64,000 nt of DNA, from assembly GCA_002410925.1 (NCBI GenBank), contig DHPR01000019.1, positions 1 to 64,000 on the forward strand, given 5' to 3'. Position 1 is the stretch's first letter, and each line of letters starts with the position of its first letter. Positions 1,971-30,077 of this stretch are shown here, in pieces. This DNA comes from a bacterium UBP13_UBA5359 (GTDB lineage Bacteria; UBP13; UBA5359). Made by a program: the position numbers and the translations under genes. The notes below the pieces were generated by a model. It searched no databases. It had not been told where the DNA came from and saw only the letters and a list, made by a program, of their open reading frames with translations.

Positions 1971-1994
1971 GGTATTCCGGCCTGCTGCTATCTC

Positions 1995-6353: not shown

Positions 6354-6370
6354 AATGCAAGTTTTTATCC

Positions 6371-6595: not shown

Positions 6596-6598
6596 AAG

Positions 6599-6988
6599 CT
6601 ATTCCACCACCTTTATTCCAAGGTTTATTGCAACATCACACATACGGCCATCAAGACTGATAAGCGGCAATTCGTTTTCGATGCAACACCGCAAATAGTA
6701 AGCATCGTAGGTATATATATTAAAACGAACAGCAATTTTTACCGCGTCATACAGATTTACAGAAACCAATCTGACTGAGATTCGCTGAGAAATCTCCAGC
6801 GCCCGAAGAACTTCTCGATCACTGAGACGTCCCTTTCTTTTAACAGCGATTAACGCATTGCCGATCTCATAGGGCAAAACTTCGGGCGAAATGATGCGCT
6901 GCCCGACAGTTTTATTAACAACCCAATCACGGTCGTTTTCATTTAATACAACAGCAAGAAATGTGCTGGCATCTGCAACAAGTTCCAT
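6599..6988 (-). CDS. PIN-domain (VapC-like) toxin
   Basis: LVADAS, YEIGNA, YDAYY, LISLD acidic PIN tetrad; 129 aa. Confidence 0.9.
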   Translation of the reverse strand: MELVADASTFLAVVLNENDRDWVVNKTVGQRIISPEVLPYEIGNALIAVKRKGRLSDREVLRALEISQRISVRLVSVNLYDAVKIAVRFNIYTYDAYYLRCCIENELPLISLDGRMCDVAINLGIKVVE

Positions 6989-11286: not shown

Positions 11287-11356
11287 TATGTTTAAGATAA
11301 TTTTACACTTCTCTGGATTAATTGGGTATAGATATTACGGCAAGGAGGTATCTGAA

Positions 11357-13829: not shown

Positions 13830-15194
13830 TCAGACGCAGAGTTCGTTATTAAAGCCATTGGCAGCTATGATGCCTTGATACCAAAAGGCCGAATCCTTGA
13901 GAACCCGCTGCTGAGTAGGATAATCGATATAGATGATGCCGAAGCGCCGGTTATAGCCAAATGACCATTCGAAGTTGTCCATAGCAGACCAGAGGAAATA
14001 GCCTCTTATGTCTACCCCATCAACAGAAGCTTTGCCATATTCTTGCAGATAACAACTAAGAAAATCGATACGCTGTGGATCATGCACCCGACCATCGTCA
14101 TGTACCCAGTCACAATTAGCCATGCCGTTCTCGGTAACGACTATAGGCAAATGGTAACGCTCGTAAAGAAACTTAGGCCCCCAGTAGAGAGACGAAGGCA
14201 CTACTTCCCATTCCATAGCTGTCAAAGCAGCCCCTATATTCTTGGATATTATCTGCCTGCTCCCATTAGAAGAGACACCGACAACCTGGCCGTGATAAAT
14301 ATTGGCGCCATAGAAATCGAGAGGCTGGCAGATAGTTTCCATATCCCCTGTCTTGATCTTAGGCAAATCCGCCTGAAAAAGATTCAAGCCGTCTTCCGGA
14401 TAACGTCCCCAGATCATTGGATCGGCAAACCAGGTGTTATTCCAGCAGCTCTTCTCCGTAACCGAAAACATCTCTTCCCTGGCAACCTCTATCTCCAGCT
14501 TACTATCGCCGGTAGGTATACTGGTTATCCCTACCGGAGCAGCACCGACTGCAGGCTGCCTGCGGGCTCGGGCGCGGATAGCCTGTACAGCCTTGCCATG
14601 CGCCAGCAACGTATTATGGGTTGCCAGCAGGATTTCTGGAAAATCCAGACTCAATCCGGGGGCATGTATGCCACTCTGATGCCCCAGACCAATAAAGCAT
14701 TGCGGCTCATTCAGAGTTATCCAATGCTGAACACGATCAGATAATCTATCGACGATTACAGCAGCATAATCTGCAAACCAGTCAGAGCTATCGCCATTCA
14801 ACCAGCCGCCACGGCAGAAAAGGGAATATGGATAATCCCAGTGAAAAAGAGTTACCCAAGGTTGTATGCCTCTCTTCAACAATGCATCGGTCAAGCGGTC
14901 GTAGAAGTCTAAGCCTTTTTTATTAACCAGGCCGATACCTTCAGGGATAATACGCGGCCAGGAGATTGAAAACCGGTAAGCTCCCAATCCTATTTCACCC
15001 ATTAGAGATACATCTTCCTCATAGCGATGATACTGGTCACAAGCGGTATCTCCCGTATCCCCACCCATAATTTTTCCTGGCCAACGGCACATCATATCCC
15101 AGACAGAAAGCCCTTTGCCATCTTCATATGCCGCTCCTTCAACCTGATATGCAGCTGATGCCGCTCCCCAGACAAAGCCTTTAGGAAAGCTCAT
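13830..15194 (-). CDS. GH1 beta-glucosidase
   Basis: AYQVEGA, TLNEP (acid/base), VTENG (nucleophile), DNFEW. Confidence 0.96.
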   Translation of the reverse strand: MSFPKGFVWGAASAAYQVEGAAYEDGKGLSVWDMMCRWPGKIMGGDTGDTACDQYHRYEEDVSLMGEIGLGAYRFSISWPRIIPEGIGLVNKKGLDFYDRLTDALLKRGIQPWVTLFHWDYPYSLFCRGGWLNGDSSDWFADYAAVIVDRLSDRVQHWITLNEPQCFIGLGHQSGIHAPGLSLDFPEILLATHNTLLAHGKAVQAIRARARRQPAVGAAPVGITSIPTGDSKLEIEVAREEMFSVTEKSCWNNTWFADPMIWGRYPEDGLNLFQADLPKIKTGDMETICQPLDFYGANIYHGQVVGVSSNGSRQIISKNIGAALTAMEWEVVPSSLYWGPKFLYERYHLPIVVTENGMANCDWVHDDGRVHDPQRIDFLSCYLQEYGKASVDGVDIRGYFLWSAMDNFEWSFGYNRRFGIIYIDYPTQQRVLKDSAFWYQGIIAANGFNNELCV

Positions 15195-15252
15195 TTATAT
15201 CTCTTCCTCCTTTACCGATATATCAGTATATTCTCCGTTATACTCTTTCACT

Positions 15253-16377
15253 TTACATCAGTGTCTCCACCATAAGCTCTATAATATCACATACGTCGAT
15301 ACGCTCTGTCGCTTGCGCGGAAAGGGCACCTTTGGTGATCGGGCATACCGTCACCAGGCGATCTGCTCCTGTTGCTACAGCTCCATCTATAATTCTGGCT
15401 GCAAGCGACCGGCTGATCTGCGGATACAATTGCTGTAAAACTCCCCCGGCTTCGCCGCAAGAAGCAGCCTCCTCCCTATTCCATCTCATTTCAACCGGCT
15501 CAATTCCAGGTATTGCAGACAGTAATTGCCTGGGCAGTTCATGCAGGCCATGAAAACGAGTGAGATAGTCATCATCATGATAAGTAACTGTCTTTTTCAA
15601 TTGCTTCTGCAACTTGATCTTTCCTTTCGCTATCAAATCACTGATATACTCAACGGCATGCAACACCTCTATCTCTGTGGCAAAAGAAACACTCATTGCT
15701 TCATAATTGCGCTTGAAAGCATCGTAACAGCTCGGGCAGTTGGTAACAATCTTTTTGCAACCTGTAGCCTTTATCTGCTGAAAAAGCTTGTTGGCCCAAT
15801 CTTTAGCTGCCTTACGATAACCGAGAAGATACAATGGCTTACCGCAGCATACCTCTCCAGGCAATATAGTAAAGCTCTCTTCTGCTTGCTTCATGATCTT
15901 GGTCATGGCCTCAGCTAGTTCGGATTGCAGATAAGTTGTATGGCACCCGGCAAAATAGAGCACCTCCGCCTTATCTAACGGAGCTTTGCCTGCCTGCATC
16001 TCAACAGGAATATCCTTTTTCAGCCCCAATATATTACCCTTGTCCAGAATATTATCCTTGATTCCGACAACTTCAGCCGAAGCCTTCTCCTGCTCAATAA
16101 TATCGGCTCTGGCAGCCTGTATCAGAGACGGCATATCGTAATTCCCCACACAATTGTTTTTACAAGCGCCGCAGGTTGTGCAACGGTAGAGAGGAGCTAT
16201 CGTTTCCTCATCCAGTTGCATGGTCTTGTTAAGTATACTATGCAGTAGTATGGCCTTACCGCGTGGGGTATCGGCCTCATGTTGCGTCTCTGTTCCCACG
16301 GTGCAGACATGCCGGCACATGAAGCATGTCTTGCAGGCGTTAATCACATCAGTGTATTCTTTAATATACATTTTCAA
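15253..16377 (-). CDS. Fe-S oxidoreductase (GlcF/GlpC/HdrD-like, CCG domains)
   Basis: CKTCFMCRHVC, CTTCGACKNNC, CCG, CPSC. Confidence 0.9.
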   Translation of the reverse strand: MKMYIKEYTDVINACKTCFMCRHVCTVGTETQHEADTPRGKAILLHSILNKTMQLDEETIAPLYRCTTCGACKNNCVGNYDMPSLIQAARADIIEQEKASAEVVGIKDNILDKGNILGLKKDIPVEMQAGKAPLDKAEVLYFAGCHTTYLQSELAEAMTKIMKQAEESFTILPGEVCCGKPLYLLGYRKAAKDWANKLFQQIKATGCKKIVTNCPSCYDAFKRNYEAMSVSFATEIEVLHAVEYISDLIAKGKIKLQKQLKKTVTYHDDDYLTRFHGLHELPRQLLSAIPGIEPVEMRWNREEAASCGEAGGVLQQLYPQISRSLAARIIDGAVATGADRLVTVCPITKGALSAQATERIDVCDIIELMVETLM

Positions 16378-17813
16378 GCCCCCTTGAATCCCATCTTGCC
16401 GGGATTCATAATATTATTCGGATCAATAGCTTCTTTAATTTTCTCAAAGATGCTGAATGCCTCTCCGTATTGCTCTTTCATCAGCCTGCCCAGCTTCAGA
16501 CCTATGCCGTGATGCTCGTTAAGCACTCCACCGGCATTTATAGCCGCCCGCACACCCGCATCCCAGACGCTATTGTAAAGCTGCGCTGCCTCATGTGGAT
16601 CCTGTGGAGGATTGTCTATAATAAAGCGGGCGTAAAGCATGCATCCCCACTCATACCAGTGTGAGAAATGCCCTATATAAACAGCCTCAGGAAAGTTATT
16701 CTCAACAGCTCTCTTCATGGCCCAGTAGACATTCTCTATATTGGAGAAGGTGGCTACCGTATCCAGAGTGCCAAAGGCCTGCGGCAGGGCAAACATATGG
16801 GGTGGGTAAAAAAAATCGTAACGATGCTTCCACCAGCTTCGGCCCATCTCGCTGCCGAGATCTTCGGAATCCTGCTTCAGGCAGATATCTATAGCTCGTT
16901 TCTTCTCTATTTCCACTATTTCTCTATCGCCTTCAAAGCCAAATACTAGATATGCCCCCTGCTTATCGATGCCCAAAACTCTCTTGATGAGTTTTTTAGT
17001 CTCAGCTTCATCATAAAGCCTGATGACGGATGGTCTCAACCGGCTGAGCATAATTTCTTTGCCTGCCTGCATAGCTGCATGCATATCTTTGAAGATAAAA
17101 GCATGGAATTGCCTCTCCGCAGGCAGAGGATGCAGCTTCAAAGTAGCCTTTGTTATGACACCCAGAGTTCCTTCCGATCCTATAAACAGCTGGTTGAGAT
17201 CAGGACCGGCCGCGTGCCGGGGCACCGGCAGAGTATTGATGATCTTTCCATCCGGAAGTACTACCTCCATGGACATGATCATGTCTTCAATTTTGCCGTA
17301 TTTGGTAGACAGCACTCCTGTTCCTCTATGGGCCAGAAAGCCTCCCAGGGTAGAGCAACTGATAGACGCGGGATAATGCATGGTAGACAGACCTTCCCCC
17401 TCCAGCTCCCACTCCAGATGCTGAGTAATAATACCTGTCTCAGCCGTAACACTGAAGGTATCCCTGTCGATGTTCAAAACTCTGTTCATCTTCTTGGTAT
17501 CCAAAATTATACCGCCGTATACAGGCAGAGCACCTCCCTGAGAACCGGCACCTCCTCCCCAGGTAACTACCGGTATCTTATAGTTACCGGCTATCTTCAG
17601 TATTCTGGAGACTTCTTCCGTCGTTTCGGGATGAACAATGAAGTCTGCCATAGGGTTGGGACACCCTCTATCCAGCCACATCTCGGGTATCCAGTAATAA
17701 TCACAGGAATAGGCCGCCTTATCCGCCTTATTACCGGTTATATCTTCCCTGCCTACGACATCCGCCAGTTCGCTGTAAAGCATTTCTTGCAAATAACTAT
17801 TTGATGTTTTCAC
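16374..17813 (-). CDS. FAD-binding oxidoreductase (alkyl-DHAP synthase/GlcD-like)
   Basis: GPDLNQLFIGSEGTLGVIT, HFSHWY, EHHGIG, DPNNIMNPGK. Confidence 0.9.
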   Translation of the reverse strand: MKTSNSYLQEMLYSELADVVGREDITGNKADKAAYSCDYYWIPEMWLDRGCPNPMADFIVHPETTEEVSRILKIAGNYKIPVVTWGGGAGSQGGALPVYGGIILDTKKMNRVLNIDRDTFSVTAETGIITQHLEWELEGEGLSTMHYPASISCSTLGGFLAHRGTGVLSTKYGKIEDMIMSMEVVLPDGKIINTLPVPRHAAGPDLNQLFIGSEGTLGVITKATLKLHPLPAERQFHAFIFKDMHAAMQAGKEIMLSRLRPSVIRLYDEAETKKLIKRVLGIDKQGAYLVFGFEGDREIVEIEKKRAIDICLKQDSEDLGSEMGRSWWKHRYDFFYPPHMFALPQAFGTLDTVATFSNIENVYWAMKRAVENNFPEAVYIGHFSHWYEWGCMLYARFIIDNPPQDPHEAAQLYNSVWDAGVRAAINAGGVLNEHHGIGLKLGRLMKEQYGEAFSIFEKIKEAIDPNNIMNPGKMGFKGA

Positions 17814-17851
17814 AAATACATACTCCCTTTCGATTAACCTTGTAGCAGCCG

Positions 17852-18634
17852 CTACGACTTTATCTTTTCCTTACTAACAACAATGGTACTGTTGTTATGT
17901 TTAAGAAGATAAGAAGCAGGCAGGTATGGAGTAACTCTGCCGCGCCTTATTTCAGCCAGCGGCCTTTCCTGTTCTTCAAAGCATGCCAGCAGCATTATCT
18001 CTCTTGTCTCCAGGATGCTCTTCATTCCCATGGTAATGGCTTTAGTAGGAACTTCAGCCGTATTACCATTTGCGGCCAGACCGGCATTGGTCTTAATAGT
18101 TAGTTCCTTCAGCCCAACAATCCTAGTAGGTAATTGAGCAAAGTCTTCTGCCGCTATCAGCTCTTCGGATATCGGCTCATTAAACGCTATATGCCCGTTA
18201 AACCCTATACCCAGCAACTGAAAATCAAGACCACCCGCATCGGCAATAAGCCTGTCGTAATCTTCAGGACAATTCGGGTCGGGGAAATTAATATTGCGAG
18301 TATTAAATCCCCGATCCGGTTTAAAACCCTGAAACAGATTTTCCGTCATATAACGCCGATAGCTAAGAGGATGCATAATATCTAAAAGACATCTATCATC
18401 GCTCATATATTCATCCAGGTTATATGTATGTAATTGCGTCAGGTCCACCTCCCTTTTATTCAGCATATCGGCCAGCAAACTGTAAAGCAGTATCATTGTC
18501 TTGCCGGTTGCCAGACCTAAATGCGTGGGTTTGCCCGACCTGTTGTTTTGCTCGATTACAGATACTATTCTAAGCGCTGCAATCGAACTCATTACCTCAT
18601 AATCCGCCGCTTTGATCCATTTTATATTCATCAT
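17852..18634 (-). CDS. nagB: Glucosamine-6-phosphate deaminase family protein
   Basis: GLATG, NLDEY, LGIGFNGHIAFNEP, AITMG, PASYL. Start moved to ATG 18634 (GGAGG RBS). Confidence 0.85.
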   Translation of the reverse strand: MMNIKWIKAADYEVMSSIAALRIVSVIEQNNRSGKPTHLGLATGKTMILLYSLLADMLNKREVDLTQLHTYNLDEYMSDDRCLLDIMHPLSYRRYMTENLFQGFKPDRGFNTRNINFPDPNCPEDYDRLIADAGGLDFQLLGIGFNGHIAFNEPISEELIAAEDFAQLPTRIVGLKELTIKTNAGLAANGNTAEVPTKAITMGMKSILETREIMLLACFEEQERPLAEIRRGRVTPYLPASYLLKHNNSTIVVSKEKIKS

Positions 18635-18672
18635 GGTCCTCCCGCTAATTAAAGCATAACTACATAGGCAGC

Positions 18673-20187
18673 TTATACCGACTGCCTGTATATATCCGCC
18701 AGGCTTGAGCATATCCGACGATAGGTATCGAACATTCCGGTGTATTTCTCATGAGAATCGTAATCCGGCTTAAATGAGTCGGCAATTTCTACGCAACTCT
18801 CTATCGCCTCCTTTTCATTTCGAAATACTCCCACACCCACTCCCGCCAGCAAGGCTGCTCCAAACGAGGCATCTCCTACAGCCGGCACCAGTATCTCCCT
18901 TCCCAAAATATCACTCACTATCCGGCACCATAACTTACTTTTAGCTCCTCCGCCTATCAACCTTATCTCGTTTACCGGCAGCTTCATGTCTTCCAAAATT
19001 CCATAACAATCCCTGATAGAATAAGCAACCCCTTCCAGGACAGATCTGAGAAAATGGCCTTTATCATGCTGCATACTAACACCGGTAAAGCTGGCTCTGA
19101 GATAAGGATCCCAATACGGCGCTCTCTCTCCCAGCAGATACGGATGGAAAAATAAACCTTCTGATCCAGCCGCCACCTGAGCCGCCCTGGCGTCCATAAT
19201 TTCATAAGGGCTCTTGTTTTGACCCCTGGCCTTCTCCACTTCTTCCGCACAGAATAACTCTCTAAACCATCTCTTGGCTGAGGCTGCGGTGTTGGTGGCC
19301 ACCACCGTATACCACAGTCCTGGAATAACATGCGAATATGTCAGCGTCTGCGGATGCGGATAAGGTGTATCGGTCATGACATTGACATTGCCGGCCGTTG
19401 CCAGCTTAATTATGCACTGCCCAGGCTCTACGGCTCCAGCAGCATAATCTTCAACGGCTGAATCCGAACAACCGGCCGCCACTGGAATCCCTGCCGGCAA
19501 TCCTGTTATCCGTGATGCCTCTTCCGTAACCTCGCCTACTATATCAGTGGGCTTTACTAATGGAGGCAGCACCTCCAGCGAGATACCGGCATAACTGCAT
19601 AGCTCCTCTGACCACTCCTGAGCCTTCATGTCGTAGAAAAGAGTGCCCTGTGCCTCTATATAATCTGTCTCCCATGTTCCCGTAAGCCTGTATCTGAGAT
19701 AATCCTTAGCAAACATTATATGGGCTGTTTTACGCAGCACTTCCGGTTCATGCCTCTGTATCCACATTAACTGCGGCAGCGTCCAGGTAGGACTGGGGCG
19801 CTGATAAGTCGTTCGGAATATTCTCTTGCCATAGTTGTTTTCCAACCTGGCTACCTCTTCCACACTGCGTTGATCGGTCCACATTATAACCGGCCGCAGC
19901 ACCTTGAAATCCCTATCAAGCAGTACGGCATTATGCGTCGATCCATCAAGAGCGATGCCGGCTATTTTATCGGCTTGCCATGCACTATGCCGTCTCATTC
20001 TCTGCAATACTCTGCAGATTGCGTTATACCATTCATCCGGGGCTTGCTCCGACCACCCCGGATGAAGGTGGCGGCTTTTGATCTCCTCCATATCTTCAGC
20101 TATAACTCGCCCTTTTTGATCTATAAGAGTAATTTTGCAACCGCTGGTGCCCAGATCTATGCCCAGAAGCAACTTTTCTTTACTCAT
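18673..20187 (-). CDS. FGGY-family carbohydrate kinase (xylulokinase-like)
   Basis: GIDLGTSGCK, WTDQRS, PYLLGERAP, GGGAKS. Confidence 0.92.
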   Translation of the reverse strand: MSKEKLLLGIDLGTSGCKITLIDQKGRVIAEDMEEIKSRHLHPGWSEQAPDEWYNAICRVLQRMRRHSAWQADKIAGIALDGSTHNAVLLDRDFKVLRPVIMWTDQRSVEEVARLENNYGKRIFRTTYQRPSPTWTLPQLMWIQRHEPEVLRKTAHIMFAKDYLRYRLTGTWETDYIEAQGTLFYDMKAQEWSEELCSYAGISLEVLPPLVKPTDIVGEVTEEASRITGLPAGIPVAAGCSDSAVEDYAAGAVEPGQCIIKLATAGNVNVMTDTPYPHPQTLTYSHVIPGLWYTVVATNTAASAKRWFRELFCAEEVEKARGQNKSPYEIMDARAAQVAAGSEGLFFHPYLLGERAPYWDPYLRASFTGVSMQHDKGHFLRSVLEGVAYSIRDCYGILEDMKLPVNEIRLIGGGAKSKLWCRIVSDILGREILVPAVGDASFGAALLAGVGVGVFRNEKEAIESCVEIADSFKPDYDSHEKYTGMFDTYRRICSSLADIYRQSV

Positions 20188-20197
20188 TGCCAGCCCC

Positions 20198-20989
20198 TTA
20201 TCCTTCTGCAATCCAACGGTGCTCAGGATTCAGTGTGGATAGAAATTTTCTGTTCTTGCCGGCCATAATCCATAGATAATACATGCCGTAGCCGGGAGCC
20301 GCCGCTACCGGATGATATCCTCTGGATATCATCACTGTATCGTCATTTTTAACGGTATACGTCTCATCAATGTCTCCGTCGTCGGTATACACCTTCTGTA
20401 TACCGAACCCCTGAGGTTTATCAAATCTGTAGAAGTATACCTCTTCCATGTCGACCTCGTGCGGCAGATTATCATAATCATGCCTATGTGGCGGAAAACC
20501 GGCCCAATTTCCTGCCGGCACTATGGCCTCACCTATATAGATATGTTTGGCACCTATACGCTCATCCAGAATCAGATAGGCTTTTCTTTGCCAGTTATCC
20601 TTACCCAGATCCTTCACAATAACATCTTCAGGTTTAATCAACTGGGGCTTGCTCTTTAAATCAGAGGGTGTCCGGCATAGAGCTACCTCTACGTCAGTCA
20701 ATGCCTTAATTTCATACAAGGTATTAAACGGCAGATAGACGCAGTAAGGCTTGCCGTCGAATACGTTCATTCTATCTCCGATATTCGAAAAATCGAAATC
20801 CTTTCCACTAACCGAACATTTGCCGTTCAATATTAACAGGCCTTCTTCATACCCTGAAGTGCTATTATTATATACCGCGCCGGCATCGAGTTTTAGCATA
20901 TCGAACTCGATATACTCCATTTCACGGCTTTTGACTATCCTTTCATACTTTGATTCCGGCTGCCGGTGTCTCAAATATGTATTCTTCAT
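20198..20989 (-). CDS. iolB: 5-deoxy-glucuronate isomerase (IolB/KduI family)
   Basis: GNWAGFPPHRHD, EEVYFY, GYHPV, YYLW. Confidence 0.85.
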   Translation of the reverse strand: MKNTYLRHRQPESKYERIVKSREMEYIEFDMLKLDAGAVYNNSTSGYEEGLLILNGKCSVSGKDFDFSNIGDRMNVFDGKPYCVYLPFNTLYEIKALTDVEVALCRTPSDLKSKPQLIKPEDVIVKDLGKDNWQRKAYLILDERIGAKHIYIGEAIVPAGNWAGFPPHRHDYDNLPHEVDMEEVYFYRFDKPQGFGIQKVYTDDGDIDETYTVKNDDTVMISRGYHPVAAAPGYGMYYLWIMAGKNRKFLSTLNPEHRWIAEG

Positions 20990-21049
20990 CGCTTTTTTGC
21001 CTCCTGATAATAATTCAGCCTTATATGCTTAAATCGATTATGTTTCTTT

Positions 21050-21712
21050 CTATGCTTTGGCAGATACCGCCCCCCAGTCCTCCAGGAATTTTTCCACGCC
21101 TATATCCGTTAATGGATGATCCGTCAATTTTGAGAAGGTATCGAATGGCAGGGTAACGATATGTGCTCCGGTCAAAGCAGCGTCGGTAACCCAACGTGGA
21201 TTGGTCAAGCTGGCTACTATTACCTCAGTTGCAAAATCGTAATTGCGGAAGATAGTCATAATATCTTCGATCAAATCCGTGCCTACCTGGCCTATATTGT
21301 CCAAACGAGCTACAAAAGGACTGACAAATGTAGCCCCAGCCCTGGCTGCCAAAATTGCTTGGTTGGCAGAAAAGATAAGAGTAACATTTGTTTTTATGCC
21401 CTCCCGGCTCAAAATTTTAACAGCTTTAAGTGCCTCCTGCGTAATAGGCAGTTTAACCGTAACGTTGCTATGAATTCCGGCCAGAGCTTGTGCCTCTTCA
21501 ATCATACTTTGGCTATCAAGACTGACGACTTCAGCACTGACCGGACCATCTACAACAGCACATATATCCCTGATAATTTCCTCAAAGGTTTTGCCTGTCC
21601 TGGCTATTTCTCTTGAAATATGTGTAGGGTTAGTAGTAGCGCCATCAATTACTCCCAGTTCGTTAGCTCTGATAATCTCCTTCATATTGGCTGAATCGAT
21701 AAATATCTTCAT
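21050..21712 (-). CDS. Transaldolase / fructose-6-phosphate aldolase family protein
   Basis: FIDSA, TTNPT, VSAEV, VKLP (Schiff-base Lys), NVTLIFS, SPFVARL. Confidence 0.92.
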   Translation of the reverse strand: MKIFIDSANMKEIIRANELGVIDGATTNPTHISREIARTGKTFEEIIRDICAVVDGPVSAEVVSLDSQSMIEEAQALAGIHSNVTVKLPITQEALKAVKILSREGIKTNVTLIFSANQAILAARAGATFVSPFVARLDNIGQVGTDLIEDIMTIFRNYDFATEVIVASLTNPRWVTDAALTGAHIVTLPFDTFSKLTDHPLTDIGVEKFLEDWGAVSAKA

Positions 21713-21958
21713 CTTTCTTCCTCTTTCCTTTTTATATAGCCGGCCGTTGCCTAAATAGCAGCGAATATGGTCATCGGCCTCTATCTTCTGCAATAGTATT
21801 AACTTGTATTGTTGTTATTATAAGATCCTATTGTATGCAACTCGACTTTACTATACGCAAAATAACCGTTTCCCTAACCGTTTTGTCGTATTGCATCAGC
21901 TTCCATGCATCTAGAAGTTTCCGGAATACCACCCCATATCAGTACCCGTTACGGTACT

Positions 21959-22945
21959 TCAAATTATCTGCAATCCTCCTCCACCTTTGATGGAATCAAC
22001 TATAGCCAGAGCCGTCTTCAACGACTCTATCCCGTCATTCAGCGAAGGTGCAAACTCCCTGTCCTCAATGATACTGAGAGCGAATTCCCGCAACAGCCGT
22101 AAATGAGGCGATTCGGTGTTCTCTCCGGTCTCTTCAAAGCTGCCGTCCTTAGAGAAAACCCTGAGCGTTTTGGACAAGCTGTCGTAGCAAATGGTCCCTT
22201 CCGTTCCAATCAGGTAATAGGCTTCATCTATAGAGAGCCCTCTCCTTATCCAGCCACCGCTCACCGTAGCAACAAAATTGCTACGGAAGGTTATGTTCGC
22301 CACCGTATAATCCATAGGTTCCGGCAACCCGGGAGAGAGCAACAGCCCGTTGCCGCAAACACTGATCGCTTCACCGAACCACCAGCGCATAATATCCAGG
22401 AGATGGATCATGGTATCTATCGTATAGCCGCCACAGATATTCATATCGGCAAACCAGTCACCCTTCTGCCTGCAGTAGCCTGCATTGATGTTGACAGCCT
22501 GACACATCTTAGGCTCTCCCAATGTGGGCAAGAGCTCCCGTATCCGCTTCTCCAGCCAGGATTGTCTTCTCATGAAGTTCATGCCGAAATGAACTCCATT
22601 AGTCGTAACGGCTTCCTTGATAGCCTTGGCCTCTTCCAGATTCAAAGTCAAAGGCTTCTCGCAGAATATATGTTTACCCCTTTGAGCCGCTTTGATTACG
22701 GTATGAACATGATACGGTGTTGGCGTCGCCACAAAGACGAAATCAATATGAGGATTATTCAATATCGCCTCTTCGTTTTGATAAAATTCCACACCATAAT
22801 CATCTCCGGTTTTTTTAGCCCGGTCGATATCGACATCACAGACGGCTGTCAATTCGGTTTCCGGAATTTGCGTTACGTTATAAGCATGAGCGCTACCCAT
22901 TCTGCCGCATCCGATTATGCCGACAGAAACCTTTCTCTTCTGCAT
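21959..22945 (-). CDS. Gfo/Idh/MocA family NAD(P)-dependent oxidoreductase
   Basis: GIIGCGRMG, ATPTPYH, CEKP, DTMIHLLD. GGAGGAG RBS before ATG 22945. Confidence 0.92.
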   Translation of the reverse strand: MQKRKVSVGIIGCGRMGSAHAYNVTQIPETELTAVCDVDIDRAKKTGDDYGVEFYQNEEAILNNPHIDFVFVATPTPYHVHTVIKAAQRGKHIFCEKPLTLNLEEAKAIKEAVTTNGVHFGMNFMRRQSWLEKRIRELLPTLGEPKMCQAVNINAGYCRQKGDWFADMNICGGYTIDTMIHLLDIMRWWFGEAISVCGNGLLLSPGLPEPMDYTVANITFRSNFVATVSGGWIRRGLSIDEAYYLIGTEGTICYDSLSKTLRVFSKDGSFEETGENTESPHLRLLREFALSIIEDREFAPSLNDGIESLKTALAIVDSIKGGGGLQII

Positions 22946-22977
22946 GATGATTTCTCCTCCAAACAACTTCAATCGAT

Positions 22978-25900
22978 TTATTTATTTTTCGTTCCCGTCA
23001 GCGCAAACAGAACGGGGTTAACCTCGCTCATATCTGAAGCATAATCTATAGACACTATCGCTTCATCAGGATATGGATTAATCCATCTATATGAAGTCAA
23101 GGAAGCGTAGGCGCCATTTTTCAGCGCCTTGCTCCATACAGTTACAGCATCCGATGCCCCAGGCAATTCACCGTTCCAACTTACTATCTGATTGCCGTAG
23201 CACAGTTGCAGAACCAGCGATTTGCCATTCAAGTAATTTATTTTATATCTGGCTACATTTCTCGGAGCGTCTCTGTTGGTGGAAAATATATCCTGTCTGG
23301 CAAAATTCACTTCCGGCTTGCTTGTCGTATGAAGAAAGAACAAGCTGTTCAGCTTCTTCTTTATCGGCAGCATGATCTCTTTCGGATAACGGCTGTCTTT
23401 GCCTCGCAGGACAACGCATCCTCTCTGAAGATTGTCACATAGCTTGAAAGGAATACTATCCAGATAATTGATACCCCCGGGTATATCGAAAACCAGGCTT
23501 TTATCATCACCTAGCCAGGAATTTTCACCGGCTGTAAAGCCGGCATTAGCAACCGAGGCTAAATCGAACAGGTAAAACTTATCATCGGCATTGCACTTTT
23601 CACTCCTGATATTCATCAGGCTATTGAACTTATCTACCGGATTGAACCGGATATCGTCAAGCTCAGGCATCCCCTTGCTCCATGAGTACTGAGCCGAGAG
23701 CACTATTTCGGCCATGAACTTAGGCATGCGAATCAGCGAAGCTATACCGGCCCACCAGGTAGTGGCAACATACCCTACGGCATCCACATCTGCAGCCTTA
23801 TTGATAAGATGATAAATGTTTAATGGATCCGTCCAGCCTGCAGCTATAACCTGATTACCGTTTTTCTGCAGATAGTCCATTGAAGAATACCGGCTGTAAT
23901 ACTTGTTGTACCAGTATTTCCACTCCCAAAGAATTATATCTTTTGAGAGCAATGGCAAAGCCTTGGCCGTGAACTGCGGCGCGCCACCCGTACCGCCGAG
24001 CGTCGGATCTCCCGGAAGCAAAGGATCAGCCGCTACAATAGTTTTGATGCCTTTCGCTTTCAAATATTTGTTAACAGCATTCTCAGCCCCGGCAAGCAAC
24101 TCATAAGGTTCTTTTAATCTGCATAGATCGCAGATGCCGATGCTGCCGTGATTGAACTCGTCAAAATTGATCATCAGATGCTCCGGCTTCCTCGGCTCGA
24201 ACAACTCGATAAGCTCATCGATAAGGCTATACATTAAATCGTAGCCTTTGGGGTTGGACAAACAAAGGTTCGTTTCAATCTCGTTTTTTGTTTCAAAAAG
24301 ATGGCCGTAATGAGTTCTGTTAATCCACCAGTTTCCATGGCTCCATCCCTGTATACAGGGTATGATCTTGAGACAACGAGATTGAGCAAAATTTAGGATT
24401 TTCTTAACCTGCTGTTTAGTAAACGCTCCACTTTTTGCTAGTTTCGGCTCATTCTCATATTGCATTCGTTCATCTATCTCAAGAAATATCGTATTGTATT
24501 TCAGATAACTAATAACATCTATCAATTTCAGAATGGCTTCCATTTCAGCTTCGTCATTAGTTCGTGGTAAAAAGAAATGAAAGCCTCGCATACCCTTTAT
24601 ATCAGGCCAATCGTGGATTACAACTTCTTGCACAAAAGACTGCGGCCTCTGGCTAAGTAATTGCCGCAACGTTTGCAAACCGCAGAAAACTCCTCGATCG
24701 CTCTGGCCGGCTACCAATATATAGCCACTTTTAACGATTAAAATATATTCCTCCGGCGCAGATCCGTTGAATTGCAGCTTTTCCATGTCCAGAAGGCGCT
24801 TAACAGCTTTATTCGCGCCGGCATTGCCGACCAGTATAAAGTTGCTCTTGGGATATGTACGAGCCGCGGTCTCGACAGGAAGGGCAAAATGATAAAGATT
24901 TTTGATATCTTTTTGTAACAGATCGATACCATATTCAGCATTATTGCCGGCTATAATCAAGGTATCTCTTTTTATCTTGAATATGCCTTTGCCGATTTCA
25001 ATTCGCTTAGGCGAAGGAACAATGCAAAAGGCCTCTGGCTGCGTTATTTCCTTTTCATCCAAAAGCACAACTTTCATGGCGCACTCGGTAGCAGGCTGCA
25101 GCTTGCCGCTATCTATTGTAACGTCGGCGCTCTTTATCGGCACCTCTGCTTTCGTCTTTTCCCCCAAGAACAAGCGATTGAAATAATTGACGGCATGAAA
25201 AGACTTTCCCGGTATATAGCTCCAGGTATAATCACCCATACCCGCGCCCCGCCGAATACGGCAGAAATTAATATCAAGAGCCTCTCCCGCCGGATTACCG
25301 CTAATATTAAAATCATTCAAGGGAATTTTCCATTCGGCATACCATCGTTTTTTTTCGGCATTTACTCTGGTACGGCATACAATTCCCGTGCTGTTCCAGC
25401 TTCTTGGAGGTAACGATATCAGATCGCTAGACTGGCCGTACCACCGGTTATTATAGCGTCCCAATTCACCGATAATAATTTTTTCATCAAAAAGCGCTCC
25501 CCCGCTGTTCATACAATATTGCACATAATATTTTCCTTTTGGAGAGTAGATAAATACGGCTGTACAATCATCAAGATATACGTTTTCATCTCTCTCTTTA
25601 CACCGAGAAACAATTTTTTCCGGCAGAGGCTCCTCGCATTCAAAGGCCAGGTAGAGATACTCGTTATCATAAAGCGCCTTTACTATTGTTGTAGCTTCTG
25701 CTGTCTTCCTAGTTCCCAGTACAAAAAAAGAATCAGCCGTCATGCCATTATCCCAGGCAGCTTCGCCGGGGTAACCATCGATCTCTATCCTGCCCTTTCT
25801 CTGAGGAACAATATAGGTCTTCGTTTCTGTTTTAGATATATTTGAGGTATCATAGCGATTGATATCGGAAATTCTGATCTCATCGATTTTACCTTTCCAC

Positions 25901-27081
25901 GGATAGGCGTTTTTATCTTCACTATTGAAGCCTAAAGCAGCTCTGCCGATAAGACAAGGTGTTTTTCTATCAATAAATTGAGGAATATAACCCTCCTTGA
26001 TCAGGACCCCGTCTATATACAGCTTAACACGCTTTCCGTTTCTCTCAACAGCAATATGATGCCACTTATGCGCTTCTATTTTGTACGCTAAATCCCTGAC
26101 GGTATTGCCGTTGACAAAAAGAGTGGGCAGGCCGTCTATTATATACAGAGCCAGCCCAGCGGTAGGTGCATACCGTTTATCAAGAATAAAAAAAGTATTG
26201 CCTTTGCCGGAGTTTTCCGGATATACCCATGCCTCTATCGTAAACCTTTCGCCCAGCACCATATCGTCCGGAGCTTCTATATACTGAGAGGAGGCACCCG
26301 TAAGCTGTACACCCTGACCGGATATTCCGGCGCATAAATTTTTCTTCGGTAGATTGACCATGCGAACCCTATTATTCTCCGCATCAAAATTTAAAAGCAG
26401 CAAAGTTGCTGCATCCGCTTTCAAACTATGCTCCGGAAAGAAGGAGATAACTTTATTATCTCCTTCTTTCCAAAGCTCTGCTTCCTTTTTCGGTTTTGAA
26501 ATATCAATCTCGATAAGAGATACTTCATCGAACCAAACAGCGCCCAGGCCGAAATTTCGCAACCAGATGCTTACATCGGAAGCATCACCGGTGTTGAATT
26601 GCACGGAATAGCTGGTCCAGATAGAAGAAGCGGGCAATTTGAGCTCTTCTATTTTAGGAGAAATATATAGACCGGCATGCCTTGATTTAAGATCAGTCTT
26701 ATACCAGAAATTGAGTTCGTAATTCGTACGCGGCTTAAGCACCAATTCCTGAATATACTGAGCACGAGGCCAATCACCGATTACTTCTGTTCCAGTTATT
26801 CTGATGCATCTTTCGCCTTTATAGCTGCCCGTGTTTTCAATGCTGAGTTCAAACTTTCCCTCACCAAAGGTACCTCCTGCCATGATACCTCTTTTCCAAT
26901 CTGCGGGATGGCCATCCTTTGCAAGCTTCTCAAACCCCGGGTTCTTTATCAGATTTTCCGCAGCAGGCAACGGCAGAGCATGCAGAGAAAAAATAATCAG
27001 AAAGGTTGTCGCCGCTGCAACAATGCTTTTTATGCTTCCCCGATATGTCCTTCTTTTATTGTTCACTAACATCATATACAC
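22978..27081 (-). CDS. Large secreted multidomain glycoside hydrolase: signal peptide, CBM4/9-like, LamG, CBM9-like, GH20 (HEX N-terminal plus catalytic)
   Basis: ENLIKNPGFE; FTIEAWV..WHHIAV..GKIDEIRIS; IEIDG..YDNEYLYLAF; IVPSPK..EEYIL..GLQTLRQL..DWPD..YNT..NFDE. Confidence 0.82.
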   Translation of the reverse strand: MYMMLVNNKRRTYRGSIKSIVAAATTFLIIFSLHALPLPAAENLIKNPGFEKLAKDGHPADWKRGIMAGGTFGEGKFELSIENTGSYKGERCIRITGTEVIGDWPRAQYIQELVLKPRTNYELNFWYKTDLKSRHAGLYISPKIEELKLPASSIWTSYSVQFNTGDASDVSIWLRNFGLGAVWFDEVSLIEIDISKPKKEAELWKEGDNKVISFFPEHSLKADAATLLLLNFDAENNRVRMVNLPKKNLCAGISGQGVQLTGASSQYIEAPDDMVLGERFTIEAWVYPENSGKGNTFFILDKRYAPTAGLALYIIDGLPTLFVNGNTVRDLAYKIEAHKWHHIAVERNGKRVKLYIDGVLIKEGYIPQFIDRKTPCLIGRAALGFNSEDKNAYPWKGKIDEIRISDINRYDTSNISKTETKTYIVPQRKGRIEIDGYPGEAAWDNGMTADSFFVLGTRKTAEATTIVKALYDNEYLYLAFECEEPLPEKIVSRCKERDENVYLDDCTAVFIYSPKGKYYVQYCMNSGGALFDEKIIIGELGRYNNRWYGQSSDLISLPPRSWNSTGIVCRTRVNAEKKRWYAEWKIPLNDFNISGNPAGEALDINFCRIRRGAGMGDYTWSYIPGKSFHAVNYFNRLFLGEKTKAEVPIKSADVTIDSGKLQPATECAMKVVLLDEKEITQPEAFCIVPSPKRIEIGKGIFKIKRDTLIIAGNNAEYGIDLLQKDIKNLYHFALPVETAARTYPKSNFILVGNAGANKAVKRLLDMEKLQFNGSAPEEYILIVKSGYILVAGQSDRGVFCGLQTLRQLLSQRPQSFVQEVVIHDWPDIKGMRGFHFFLPRTNDEAEMEAILKLIDVISYLKYNTIFLEIDERMQYENEPKLAKSGAFTKQQVKKILNFAQSRCLKIIPCIQGWSHGNWWINRTHYGHLFETKNEIETNLCLSNPKGYDLMYSLIDELIELFEPRKPEHLMINFDEFNHGSIGICDLCRLKEPYELLAGAENAVNKYLKAKGIKTIVAADPLLPGDPTLGGTGGAPQFTAKALPLLSKDIILWEWKYWYNKYYSRYSSMDYLQKNGNQVIAAGWTDPLNIYHLINKAADVDAVGYVATTWWAGIASLIRMPKFMAEIVLSAQYSWSKGMPELDDIRFNPVDKFNSLMNIRSEKCNADDKFYLFDLASVANAGFTAGENSWLGDDKSLVFDIPGGINYLDSIPFKLCDNLQRGCVVLRGKDSRYPKEIMLPIKKKLNSLFFLHTTSKPEVNFARQDIFSTNRDAPRNVARYKINYLNGKSLVLQLCYGNQIVSWNGELPGASDAVTVWSKALKNGAYASLTSYRWINPYPDEAIVSIDYASDMSEVNPVLFALTGTKNK

Positions 27082-27124
27082 CGTCCTTCGTTAAGGATTT
27101 TAAAATCTTTCAACCTGCCGGGCA

Positions 27125-27856
27125 TTATTGATTGGCATCCAGCAATGTCCAAATTCCAGCCATGGATGCATTATCAATTGCACCGTTACCCCAGGAATTG
27201 CCCTTCATATTGCCGCTGGGATCCTTATACGGCTTAACATGGCCGTCACCGTATAGCGTCATGAAAATATTTCCGTGCCCTCTTCTACCGGCAGAGACTG
27301 CATAAAGAATAAAAGCATCAACGAGCAGCGCCTTTTGAGACCATTCCGAGTCCAGAAAGATGCAGTCATCGTCCAGCATATTGCCGTTGCCATTAAGATC
27401 CTCCCCACGCATGATATAAGAGCCTTCAACCCAGTTGCTGGTCCAGTAAGTAGTATAGTCATCCGACTTGATCGAATCACTGAGGCAATAGAATATGGCA
27501 ACCTGGGTAGTGCCCGCTGAACTGCCAGCGTATTTTCCGATATAGTTTTCCTTATATAAAAGGCCATGGTTAACCCATTTTGCCGAATTGCATTTCATCA
27601 CACATCCGCGTCTCAGAAGGTTGCTCTGAAAATAGCCCGGCATCAGATAACTATCATAATCCTGCGCATACATAAGCATGGCCGCACCAAGCTGTTTGAG
27701 ATTGCTCATACAGGTAGCCTGCCTGGCCTTCTCACGAGCCTGACCAAATACCGGAAAGAGTATAGCACTGAGCAAAGCAATTATTGCTATTACAACCAAT
27801 AATTCAATTAAAGTAAAAGCGTTTATTGAGTTCTTCTTTTTTATATTATCACACAT
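27125..27856 (-). CDS. Prepilin-type N-terminal cleavage/methylation protein with H-X9-DG C-terminal motif (DUF1559-like)
   Basis: [76 protein letters not shown] before ATG 27856. Confidence 0.92.
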
Positions 27857-27966
27857 TTTACACTCCTTTATCATTAATAAACCGTTTCTTAATGATCTCC
27901 TCAGACTAATAAAACAGGGTCCCGTTTGGTCATATACTTATCTGATCTCTCCTGCATGCTTGTTTA

Positions 27967-28021
27967 CTTGTCTTTACAAGCACGTATTGTTTATATTCGA
28001 CGCATTTGCAGATTTTCCTCT
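27967..28021 (-). promoter_or_regulatory. Operator CTTGTCTTTACAAG (27967-27980) and sigma-H-like promoter AGAGGAAAA-N11-GTCGAAT (27995-28021)
   Basis: TTGT-N4-ACAA palindrome resembling the B. subtilis AraR box, 14 nt downstream of the -10. Confidence 0.7.
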
Positions 28022-28129
28022 CTTTCCTATAACATTATCGCTCATCATAACGAAAATTAGTTACCTTTACCAACATGCGTTATCTACAATGCAACGAGAA
28101 AGACTCTCCTGCCAGACCGCCCTTCGCCA

Positions 28130-28755
28130 TATTGGGCATAACGGCGTTGAAGAGGAAATCTTCCCGGCTCTGGACATTGACGCTTCTGCGACATGCTGCC
28201 GCATATCTGGCCGGATGGTACCCAGTAATGCATGCAGAAGTTGTGCTTTGGTCTCATAATCGTCATCCTGAAGCGCTCCGGTGAGAAAAGCGCCGTTGCC
28301 GACAAAAGCGTTCAGATAATTATCTCGGTGCTGCTTACTACCGGATTATACGGATAGACGACTATGCTCTTGCCGGCAAGCATACCCGTCTCTATACCGG
28401 CTTCGTCTACCATGCCGGCATCTATACCTGCCCGAGACAAAGCGCCAGCCATCTTATTCGCATAGACCTTGGCCGAAGCGGCTTCGGTTCCGGCACGCGT
28501 ATTTCGGACAACTATAACGTCATCGCCAATTCCTTTCATTGCCCCCAGCAGGACCGTAGCCTGTATATCGGCACCTTTCCAGACGGGAAAACGTATACGG
28601 TCGATGCTGCTCCAGCTTGCAGGTGTGCCTTCAACCACAAAATCAGCTCTGTTGAAGATTACATGCTGCCAGCCCTGCATAGGCAATCCGAAGCCGATAT
28701 TCTGATTCGCGGTATACCAGCCTGAGCCAAACCTAAAATGAAATAAGCCCTCCTT
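28130..28755 (-). pseudogene. Startless, frameshifted fragment of a carbohydrate-active protein
   Basis: One frame reads LFHFRFGSGWY..GWQHVIFNRADFVVEGTPASWSSIDRIRF..YPYNP. After a shift near 28315 it reads LNAFVGNGAFLTGALQDDDYETKAQLLHALLG. The upstream in-frame codon is a stop. Boundaries approximate. Confidence 0.55.
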
Positions 28756-28830
28756 CTAACATTGCCGAATTCTTTATCCTGTGCTTAAACCCAAATCGGC
28801 TTAAAGCACCTGCACAGCTCCTCATGTTAG

Positions 28831-28844
28831 CTTGTCTTTACAAG
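28831..28844. promoter_or_regulatory. Second identical operator CTTGTCTTTACAAG
   Basis: Exact 14-bp copy of 27967-27980. Confidence 0.65.
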
Positions 28845-28879
28845 TTGGCGCACACATACACCGCTCTGCTCCTGTTTAT

Positions 28880-29989
28880 TTATCCTTTGCTGTTAGCCGC
28901 AACCGATCCCCTTATCATTAATTCCGTCGGCAAAACAAACTTGCCGATTTCATTGCGTTCATCTCGTATTATCTCCAGAAGCACCGTAGCCGCCTTCTTC
29001 CCCAGTTCATATTTGGGCTGAGCAATAGTAGTAAGAGGCGGTGTTAAAACCGAAGAGGTGGAGAGATCATCAAAGCCTACGATAGATATTTCCTGTGGAA
29101 TCGATAATCCTATCTGCTTAACGGCTCTGTAGACATCAAGAGCAACCAGATCATTAGAAGCCACCACTGCACTGATTTTGTTGCGGTTCAGAAAATTCTT
29201 GACGGTATCCACCCGCTGCTCCTCCGGTATATCCATTATATAGCTTCCTTCCGGAATCAATTTTGCCGTCGGAATCTCCGTATACTTGAGGCCGTTATCT
29301 CTTAAAGCATCTTTATATCCTTCTATTCTATCTCTTATCGGAGTTATATTGCGTTCGGGGGTAATTATCAATCCTATTCTTCTATGGCCCTGCCGGATCA
29401 GATATGAAACAGCCTCGTATGCACCGCTATAATTGTCGGAAACAACATAATCCGTTTCTAATTGCGGCAGATATCTATCAATAAGTATAAATGGAAAAGC
29501 ACTGCTTTTGAGCTCGCTAATCGCTTTGTAACTCTTTTCTGCTTCACAGGGAAGAATAATCAGCCCCTCCACTCCTTTTTTCCGTAATCTGTTAATGTTA
29601 TCTCTCTCTTTAACCGGGTTATTGCCGGAATTACAAAAGATCAGCGTATAATTATTCGAGTATAGAACGTGCTCAACACCGAGTGTTATTTCTACCTCAA
29701 AAGGGCCTTTCGTATAGGGAAGTATCAGGCCAATGAATTTAGTCTTTTTAGGCTGGTATCTATCAGCCACAAAAGTACCCACCCCTTTTTCCCTATAGAG
29801 TATTCCTTCATTTATTAATTCGGAAATAGCATGCCGTATAGTCGGCCTGGAAATACCGAATCTGGCGACTAATTCGTTCTCGCTGGGAATTTTACTCCCG
29901 GGTGTTATATTATCCGTCTTCAGCATATTGAGCAATATGCTCTTCAATTGAGCATATCTCGGTATCAAAGAATTTTTATCTATTTTCAT
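28880..29989 (-). CDS. GntR-HTH / LacI-type sugar-binding transcriptional regulator (AraR-like)
   Basis: IPSENELVARFGISRPTIRHAI..GVGTFV; VVSDNYSG, GHRRIG, SIVGFDD, PPLTTIAQP. Confidence 0.95.
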   Translation of the reverse strand: MKIDKNSLIPRYAQLKSILLNMLKTDNITPGSKIPSENELVARFGISRPTIRHAISELINEGILYREKGVGTFVADRYQPKKTKFIGLILPYTKGPFEVEITLGVEHVLYSNNYTLIFCNSGNNPVKERDNINRLRKKGVEGLIILPCEAEKSYKAISELKSSAFPFILIDRYLPQLETDYVVSDNYSGAYEAVSYLIRQGHRRIGLIITPERNITPIRDRIEGYKDALRDNGLKYTEIPTAKLIPEGSYIMDIPEEQRVDTVKNFLNRNKISAVVASNDLVALDVYRAVKQIGLSIPQEISIVGFDDLSTSSVLTPPLTTIAQPKYELGKKAATVLLEIIRDERNEIGKFVLPTELMIRGSVAANSKG

Positions 29990-30015: not shown

Positions 30016-30077
30016 TTGTGAAGTTGTAATTACAACTTCACAAATATAATATTCGATATATCTTAAGAATATCCTTC
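30016..30077 (-). promoter_or_regulatory. Perfect 28-bp palindrome (30016-30043, core GTTGTAATTACAAC) and sigma-H-like promoter GAAGGATAT-N11-ATCGAAT (30051-30077)
   Basis: Read directly. The operator core is 14 nt downstream of the -10, as at 27967. Confidence 0.7.

Follow-up and report, generated by a model that had tools for sequence, protein, structure and literature searches.

How a bacterium may feed on a glycan from a sugar-utilization locus that encodes no transporter, and what a pilin-like gene contributes near the head of such a locus, are the questions raised by a gene cluster of the bacterium UBP13_UBA5359 (assembly GCA_002410925.1). The cluster lies on contig DHPR01000019.1, of which positions 1 to 64,000 were analysed and are termed the window below, and it comprises a sugar-type repressor gene, a gene for a prepilin-type protein of the DUF1559 family, a gene for a large exported enzyme of glycoside hydrolase (GH) family 20 and eight genes for cytoplasmic enzymes. 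From this arrangement and from a survey of DUF1559 genes in related genomes, it is concluded that the pilin family is genuinely linked to exported glycan enzymes under sugar regulation, at least as far as Lentisphaerota and the lineage of the window are concerned. As to the role of the pilin, it is tentatively read as a glycan-capturing subunit that is specific to the locus, is induced by sugar and belongs to a shared machine resembling a type IV pilus, a reading that is favoured here while being given less than an even chance.

A putatively sugar-regulated locus and its pilin-like protein

The locus is a minus-strand run that opens with the regulator gene (28880-29989) and continues with ten intact co-oriented genes, as delimited by the list of open reading frames (ORFs) and by Pfam and NCBIfam matches, the spacing between genes ranging from -40 to 165 bp. 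Behind the regulator, the intact genes encode the 249-aa prepilin/DUF1559 protein (27125..27874), the exported 1367-aa LamG/GH20 enzyme (22978..27081) and the eight cytoplasmic enzymes, in this order. An initial annotation, made from the letters alone, had described ten co-oriented genes behind a GntR-LacI regulator and a locus devoid of transporters, and both descriptions were borne out: Pfam and NCBIfam scans detected no ATP-binding cassette (ABC), major facilitator superfamily (MFS), phosphotransferase system (PTS), SusC or TonB family in the locus, and a hydropathy scan found no polytopic membrane protein in it. The whole window holds just two proteins of the latter kind, an auxin-efflux-carrier (AEC)-like protein (7066-8010) and MarC (54329-54922).

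The regulator (369 aa) joins a GntR-type helix-turn-helix (HTH) domain (68.4 bits, residues 12-74) to a LacI-type sugar-binding domain (Peripla_BP_3, 118.2 bits, and Peripla_BP_1, 110.3 bits, residues 85-363) in the Pfam scan. This combination of an N-terminal winged helix with a Peripla_BP domain marks it as a GntR-HTH/LacI-type repressor, the effector and operator of which are putative, and its top NCBIfam matches are RbsR/CytR/PurR-like, every one below the equivalog cut-off. A 28-bp perfect palindrome with a TTGTAATTACAA core (30016..30043), situated 27 bp upstream of the regulator ATG, is a putative autoregulatory operator. Past the regulator stop codon by 36 bp, there is an operator-like inverted repeat, CTTGT-AAAG-ACAAG (28831..28844), a 14-mer of 5-bp inverted arms with a 4-bp spacer (CTTGTAAAGACAAG), and a second exact copy (27967..27980) is located 93 bp upstream of the ATG of the pilin-like gene. 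The palindrome and the 14-mer have a TTGT-N4-ACAA core in common, which occurs four times in the window against 0.55 expected, a count reached in 0 of 100 shuffles; the fourth copy is found within the gene for the CCG-domain protein described below. The regulator presumably binds to these operator-like sites. A relaxed search allowing up to three mismatches returned 6 sites against 4.35 expected, with none near the sole candidate permease of the window, and a scan for promoters and terminators remained at the level of shuffled sequence (32 versus 31.0 and 13 versus 13.2, respectively).

That candidate permease, the AEC-like protein encoded on the plus strand, is the sole transporter-like polytopic protein near the locus, with seven hydrophobic segments and a weak auxin-efflux-carrier match (E=1.7e-6); its gene adjoins a xylose-isomerase-like TIM-barrel gene and a cupin-HTH regulator gene, in a group that includes 8155-9024 on the minus strand, and no operator 14-mer is present nearby. 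A second GntR-HTH/Peripla_BP hybrid regulator is encoded at 186-1460 on the minus strand, interrupted by a 203-N assembly gap (743-945), and the genes downstream of it fall outside the window.

The pilin gene had been described as the first intact gene, directly behind the operator, which holds in so far as it is the first intact gene with a 14-mer upstream, while the wreck of another gene lies ahead of it. This minus-strand pseudogene (28109..28770) is the remnant of a GHL10/YddW-like lipoprotein gene (PF02638): the 124-aa ORF left between the regulator and the pilin gene is 88% identical to part of P0244, an intact 799-aa homologue that is probably from a close relative. By tblastn and a three-frame reading, what is left covers homologue residues 98-243 at 28770-28321 and, read in a second frame, 345-411 at 28297-28109, whereas both ends and the middle are gone. 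It is thus to decay that the pilin gene owes its place at the head of the locus, which has recently lost its first gene. The decayed gene and the pilin gene are each provided with their own copy of the 14-mer.

The pilin-like protein (P0001) was recognized through Pfam N_methyl and DUF1559 matches, an alignment and a structure model. Its class III leader ends A|FTLIELL, with alanine at -1 and glutamate at +5, and the scores for N_methyl (PF07963, 29.2 bits versus a cut-off of 21.2) and TIGR02532 (25.5 versus 16.3) are those of a prepilin. DUF1559/SBP_bac_10 (PF07596) is matched at 34.3 bits versus a cut-off of 23.3, the aligned part being profile positions 2-33 of 268 only, and the family-conserved residues C55, N58, Y69, D72-Y73-D74, Y111, C130, H200 and D210-G211-H212 are all kept. 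Of the earlier description of a prepilin with an H-X9-DG tail, the prepilin part is supported by the leader; H200-x9-D210-G211 is literally present, with 38 residues following the motif, and is scored by the curated model below its cut-off, as given further on. The nearest named DUF1559 matches are from Armatimonadota. The ATP synthase beta of the window is 97% and 93% identical to proteins of MAGs (metagenome-assembled genomes) and then about 72% identical to those of many phyla, which places the organism in a deep lineage.

Alignment with 110 relatives divides the protein into unequal parts, the mean share of the commonest residue being 0.88 over residues 18-76 and about 0.2 over residues 77-195. 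F20, E24 and the remaining helix are invariant in the 111 relatives, and a second conserved island consists of H200 and D210-G211-H212-V-K (mean share 0.53); residues 77-195 are hypervariable in both sequence and length, with the stretch from C130 to H200 spanning 64-168 residues across the alignment. An AlphaFold2 model built from 111 sequences displays a confident helix and a confident hairpin of strands 203-208 and 213-217, with D210-G211 at the turn. The ligand pocket that had been proposed at H-X9-DG is not supported, since the hairpin is nearly invariant across paralogues and is consequently a poor candidate for a substrate-specific pocket; it is a shared structural or assembly element, in which the seat of specificity is not likely to lie, and the hypervariable middle region could be a determinant of specificity instead. 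A profile search of the PDB gave 19 matches, all of them pilins (including PilA and geopilin) and all confined to the helix. When globular residues 78-249 were compared with 1.84 billion representative sequences, two hits were obtained at E<=0.001, the protein's own fragment and a repeat artefact, and an all-against-all BLAST of 101 globular parts yielded 120 related pairs, none of which involved the window pilin. The related pairs fall mostly within Planctomycetota and Verrucomicrobiota; in one of them (survey loci L032 and L056), each locus has a sulfatase gene adjoining a DUF1559 gene, which can be taken as an anecdote only. In its construction the protein is accordingly a pilin, in which an assembly helix common to the family carries a head of its own.

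The exported enzyme encoded next on the minus strand (22978..27081) is composed of a signal peptide, an N-terminal sugar-binding-like module, a LamG domain, a weak CBM9-like region, GH20b and GH20. Its previous designation as a secreted CBM/LamG/GH20 enzyme can be retained for LamG (Laminin_G_3, 2e-18), for GH20 and, judged by eye, for the Sec-signal-like N-terminus, and is not upheld for the carbohydrate-binding module (CBM), as the CBM9_1 match of 19.7 bits lies below the 23.4 cut-off. GH20b (PF02838) is matched at 5e-16, with 60 bits versus 26.1, and the GH20 catalytic domain (PF00728) at 30.7 bits versus a cut-off of 22.3. The closest solved relative of the latter is the GH20 catalytic domain protein 9fym (E=1.1e-17), to whose D-E pair D974-E975 are aligned. 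With both domains above their cut-offs and the D-E pair in place, the enzyme can be assigned to GH20, its activity being predicted.

The cytoplasmic enzymes, all encoded on the minus strand and identified by Pfam and NCBIfam, begin with a GFO/IDH/MocA oxidoreductase (21959..22972), IolG-like and below the equivalog cut-off, and a fructose-6-phosphate aldolase/TalC-type (FSA/TalC) aldolase (21050..21793; TIGR00875, 289.3 bits versus a cut-off of 245.95). An IolB/KduI-type isomerase (20198..20989; TIGR04378, 260 bits versus 205) and an XylB-like FGGY sugar kinase (18673..20211; TIGR01312, 426.3 bits versus 380.25) come next, followed by a NagB-like sugar-phosphate deaminase/isomerase below its equivalog cut-off (17852..18712), a GlcD-like FAD-linked 2-hydroxyacid oxidase/dehydrogenase (16374..17813) and its GlcF/LdhH-like partner subunit with Fe-S/CCG domains (15253..16377). 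The last gene of the run encodes a GH1 beta-glucosidase (13830..15194; TIGR03356, 526 bits versus 478.5). This mix of GH20, GH1, IolG-like, IolB-KduI, FGGY, FSA, NagB-like and GlcD-CCG enzymes matched no single textbook pathway that we could name. Since the sugar has to be inside the cell for the effector site of the repressor and for the FGGY kinase, the aldolase, GH1 and the NagB-like protein, a transporter is still missing from the picture: an inner-membrane permease encoded elsewhere is still required, and the pilin cannot carry sugar across the cytoplasmic membrane.

DUF1559 genes and their neighbours in related genomes

For the survey, genome contigs were scanned with a profile of the family alignment, in which the leader patterns allowed [GA] at -1. 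At least 629 pattern matches were obtained; from the 509 that passed confirmation, the best 80 were taken, which correspond to 79 loci (numbered with the prefix L). According to the record titles, these belong to Verrucomicrobiota (25), Lentisphaerota (21), Planctomycetota (17), Armatimonadota (9), Kiritimatiellia (1), Omnitrophota (1) and unclassified or other sources (5), the genome of the window lying outside them. ORFs were called with our own picker anchored on the DUF1559 hidden Markov model, by which 109 such ORFs were found and 78 of the 79 loci received one at the match. Pfam (E<=1e-7) was then run on the first non-DUF1559 gene upstream (72 genes) and downstream (73 genes), and every second of 247 genes located at least five positions upstream or at least six downstream served as control (124 genes).

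Of the 72 genes directly upstream, 9 encode a sugar-type regulator combining HTH and Peripla_BP domains, compared with 2 of the 124 distal controls (odds ratio 8.7, Fisher p=0.0023), which supports the predicted enrichment of sugar regulators beside the paralogues in this sample. Eight of these regulators are on the same strand as the DUF1559 gene, all in Lentisphaerota (21 loci), whereas that of L024 is divergent, and L065 additionally possesses an FCD-type GntR fragment. The parallel prediction for carbohydrate-active enzymes held on one side, the first downstream gene being glycan-active in 11 of 73 cases versus 7 of 124 controls (p=0.039) and the first upstream gene in 6 of 72, and weakened when both sides were taken together, as given below.

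A sugar-repressor gene, a DUF1559 pilin gene and a gene for a large exported glycan enzyme recur together as a cassette in Lentisphaerota. The regulator and pilin genes overlap or lie no more than about 150 bp apart, often overlapping or within 20 bp, and a gene for a protein of 480-980 aa comes next; where they overlap or stand less than 20 bp apart on the same strand, the two genes are taken to be co-transcribed. Cassettes often consist of the regulator, the pilin and one to three large exported proteins, without catabolic genes. Thirty further genes of the cassettes and similar loci gave weak or clear matches to GH123, GH39/42, GH95/65, GH78, carrageenase-propeller and LamG families, and no transporter was found among them. 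A signal-like start was seen by eye in 14 of 18 large downstream proteins, those of L003 and L036 beginning with the N-terminal module of the 1367-aa enzyme of the window, and in L020 (GH78) and L069 (sulfatase) the first downstream enzyme has no visible signal peptide. Outside Lentisphaerota, the neighbours are a mixed bag. In L013, from a MAG of Lentisphaeria, and L071, from an Armatimonadota MAG, the pilin gene is followed by a gene for an 800-830-aa DUF4838 protein (E=3e-54 and 3e-88, respectively), a partner type that different phyla have in common.

Machine genes adjoin only three of the 79 loci, which fits a machine that is shared. L021, covering positions 1-6787 of an Omnitrophota MAG, encodes a PilB-like protein, PilT/PilU (432.6 bits versus a cut-off of 319.1), a PilB with an MshE-type cyclic di-GMP (c-di-GMP)-binding domain and PilC/GspF, and then two DUF1559 genes; some family members are accordingly the pilins of a machine of type IV pilus-like kind that is retractile and controlled by c-di-GMP. 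In L038 (Kiritimatiellia), the DUF1559 gene is followed by secretin, PilM-like and PilB-like genes, and L012 has a GspD-like secretin beside a family member. The best NCBIfam matches of the L038 secretin and PilM-like proteins are the Amuc_1098 and Amuc_1101 families of the Akkermansia Amuc_1098-1102 cluster, albeit far below the equivalog cut-offs (163 versus 750 bits and 91 versus 650 bits), and the window holds no such cluster.

Glycan capture, enzyme secretion and other explanations

If the pilin is a glycan-capturing subunit, it would be made only when the sugar of the locus is present, would be cut by a prepilin peptidase and would be assembled, by a shared machine whose genes lie elsewhere, into a fibre resembling a type IV pilus. 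Its variable domain would bind the glycan of the locus outside the cell, and the bound glycan would be brought to the envelope and to the co-expressed enzyme, possibly via pilus retraction, so that the pilin would take the part that SusCD or a solute-binding protein plays in capture. The pilin could at most replace this outer-membrane or capture step. From the initial proposal of a capture/uptake subunit, membership in the sugar locus is retained on the strength of regulator, operator and synteny, whereas transport across the inner membrane has to be given up, and enzyme secretion accounts for the arrangement equally well. Capture is nevertheless favoured over secretion because family members share an operon with a PilT-type retraction ATPase, because the first enzyme of some cassettes has no visible signal peptide, because polysaccharide-binding fibres are documented in a DUF1559-rich phylum, and because one private, hypervariable head per sugar-regulated cassette resembles a set of substrate-specific adhesins.

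The mechanism so proposed resembles that of ComGC and the PilA/PilT DNA-capture pili, in which a fibre binds an outside polymer and retraction brings it to the envelope. Competence pili serve in the uptake of DNA; here a glycan would take the place of DNA as cargo, the subunit is specific to its locus and controlled by a sugar repressor, and neither a retraction ATPase nor a secretin is encoded in the window. The locus is also comparable with the SusC/SusD polysaccharide utilization loci of Bacteroidota in its co-oriented regulator, exported or surface glycan enzyme and catabolic genes, the pilin being placed near the head where SusCD would sit. It differs from them in that Pfam and NCBIfam disclosed no TonB-dependent transporter or SusD, and in that its regulator is a cytoplasmic GntR/LacI hybrid, whereas SusC/SusD loci are controlled by hybrid two-component or ECF (extracytoplasmic function)/anti-sigma systems. 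Among polysaccharide-binding structures, the nearest parallel is offered by the fibres of Planctomycetes, a DUF1559-rich phylum. In the passages available from PMC5394234, these pili-like fibres bind gold-labelled dextran and are discussed within an uptake system, and those from a 2025 review (PMC12673574) still describe the players of the planctomycete uptake route as unknown. These fibres are associated with crateriform structures, and their subunits are not identified in the passages from either source; no paper in the literature found ties them to DUF1559.

Several observations weigh against the capture of glycan by this pilin. The synteny itself does not show uptake and is compatible with secretion of the enzyme. 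Among the 51 ORFs scanned in the window, there is no pilus machine, prepilin peptidase or PilT, nor do any of them form a cluster of assembly ATPase, platform protein, secretin and prepilin peptidase as in a type II secretion system (T2SS) or type IV pilus. The H-X9-DG model TIGR04294 scores the window pilin at 12.3 bits (E=0.11), below the curated cut-off of 19, while the relatives P0041, P0016, P0014 and P0025 exceed the cut-off. The protein also departs from the family at four conserved positions, N110, G113, L131 and W178 standing for P, K, P and P that are kept in 82-93% of the 111 relatives, and its variable region is among the shortest (69 residues versus a median of 103); it is a compact, divergent family member. 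Confidence in the structure model is low for the variable part (mean predicted local distance difference test score, pLDDT, 66.6, with four segments below 50), for which reason no pocket could be judged there, and Foldseek gave no match in the PDB at E<=0.001, the best being PilA4 (E=0.37).

The survey imposes limits of the same direction. Its loci are a non-random sample of related genomes that were treated as independent in the tests, and genes, functional classes and signal peptides were assigned by procedures of our own. Same-strand regulators were found in 0 of 51 loci outside Lentisphaerota, and the regulator link is confined, among the phyla sampled, to one phylum and the lineage of the window. 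The enrichment of glycan genes is modest, with 17 of 145 for both neighbours together versus 7 of 124 (p=0.09), and the anticipated depletion of transporters near DUF1559 genes did not materialize at a significant level (3 of 145 proximal versus 6 of 124 distal genes, p=0.31). In the literature found, no binding, assembly, expression or uptake data were encountered for any DUF1559 protein; by the accessible part of PMC2754498, the DUF1559 genes of R. baltica, present in 74 copies, reacted to salt and temperature shifts and not to sugars.

The gravest competitor of capture is a cargo-specific pseudopilin, which we place on the unlikely side: the protein would be induced together with the 1367-aa enzyme, join a shared T2SS-like pseudopilus and push, recognize or display the enzyme at the outer membrane, so that it would serve export and not import. 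It would explain why the best NCBIfam match of the pilin, covering its N-terminal 60 residues (19-76), is the GspG/PulG-type major pseudopilin model TIGR01710, and yet the 37 bits reached there fall well short of the equivalog cut-off of 88.85. With GspG/PulG of the Klebsiella Pul system, the pilin has the prepilin leader, the N-methyl-Phe site, E5 and the long N-terminal helix in common; it differs in a globular part that is unrelated by sequence and unmatched by fold, in being encoded without other Gsp genes and in being one of a family whose hypervariable paralogues are numerous in each genome. In Klebsiella, maltose induces the Pul secreton along with pullulanase, the enzyme that it exports, which speaks for such an arrangement, although we know of no type II system with cargo-specific paralogues of the major pseudopilin. 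From the survey, secretion would draw on the signal-peptide proteins that are the conserved cassette partners, on the cassettes made of regulator, pilin and exported proteins, and on the GspD-like secretins that adjoin two family members (L012 and L038). The enzymes of L020 and L069 that lack a visible signal peptide would be out of place in it, and two of the three machine-linked loci are type IV pilus-like, with PilT and PilM, and not Gsp.

A membrane-tethered periplasmic binding or sensor protein is regarded as improbable; after leader cleavage it would stay anchored in the inner membrane by its helix and, without any fibre being formed, would pass oligosaccharide on to a permease or signal that it is present. 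The Pfam identifier SBP_bac_10, a gene position equal to that of the binding-protein gene in ABC sugar operons and the distance of 76 of the 79 loci from machine genes would suit it. The protein bears no likeness in fold or sequence to solute-binding proteins and matches none of their families beyond the name of that identifier, its structural matches being the helices of pilins as described; no permease partner is encoded nearby, the locus containing neither permease nor ATPase; and E5 and the whole assembly helix are invariant, as would be expected only under selection for assembly. The slimmest chance of all is given to the absence of any functional link, according to which one of very numerous DUF1559 genes came to lie between the regulator and the sugar operon by chance after decay. 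The family is indeed huge, with 7771 of 8000 scored candidates matching at E<=0.001 and two or three copies in 24 of the 79 loci, the GHL10 gene is intact in the close relative where a wreck remains here, and the neighbours outside Lentisphaerota are mixed; against chance stand the 14-mer directly upstream of the pilin gene, the roughly eightfold greater frequency of sugar regulators than among distal genes, and the operon-like spacing in the cassettes.

A bolder extension of the capture reading, which is deemed unlikely, would place DUF1559 pilins, as substrate-specific heads, in a third general design of polysaccharide use that stands alongside SusCD/TonB and the binding proteins of ABC systems, and in which each cassette contributes a hypervariable pilin to a shared retractile machine and the glycan is fished and passed to the exported enzyme. 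If true, it would explain the hundreds of paralogues and the polymer feeding without SusCD in the PVC (Planctomycetes-Verrucomicrobia-Chlamydiae) group, Armatimonadota and allied lineages. DUF1559 is among the largest paralogous families of Planctomycetota, Verrucomicrobiota, Lentisphaerota and Armatimonadota; the passages available from PMC10632474 list 68 functionally uncharacterized paralogues in P. limnophila, of which two are essential, and those from PMC5352709 mention one copy on a plasmid. With its recurrent combination of a sugar repressor, a DUF1559 pilin and an exported glycan enzyme, the cassette ties this family to carbohydrate use and provides testable pilin-regulator-enzyme pairs. 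Capture, if true, would be a new uptake principle and secretion a new modular choice of cargo for type II secretion, and either outcome would be useful for annotating thousands of genomes.

The idea of a transporter is not wholly new, being already embedded in database names: the NCBI product name of some members is 'DUF1559 family PulG-like putative transporter', a phrase ('PulG-like putative transporter') for which no paper was found, and the Pfam identifier mentioned above points the same way. No link of pilins to glycan use was met in the prepilin literature on Lentisphaerae, including PMC7397252, nor was any relevant paper found on H-X9-DG or on pseudopilins in the uptake of polysaccharide by Planctomycetes. 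The family is known and the locus is a sugar operon of the polysaccharide-utilization type; the recurrent cassette as a handle on function is new relative to the literature searched.

Other genes of the window

A plus-strand gene at 11288-13702, which converges on the end of the sugar locus, encodes an 804-aa protein in which a class I/II aminotransferase is fused to a zinc alcohol dehydrogenase. At 6371-6988 on the minus strand, a PIN-domain gene (6599-6988) precedes a 74-aa ORF of the same orientation (6371-6595); should the two constitute a toxin-antitoxin pair, they are arranged the opposite way round from what is usual for VapBC. An OLD-family nuclease-like gene (46852-48267, minus strand), encoding an AAA_15/AAA_21 ATPase and an OLD-like TOPRIM domain, is inserted between a purine biosynthesis operon and a GH38 alpha-mannosidase gene (48413-51523), and looks like a defence gene. 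Finally, an AIR (aminoimidazole ribonucleotide)-carboxylase-like gene is found beside a nickel-insertion gene (Ni_insertion, PF01969) at 55098-57056 on the plus strand, a pairing that presumably serves the synthesis of a nickel-pincer cofactor.

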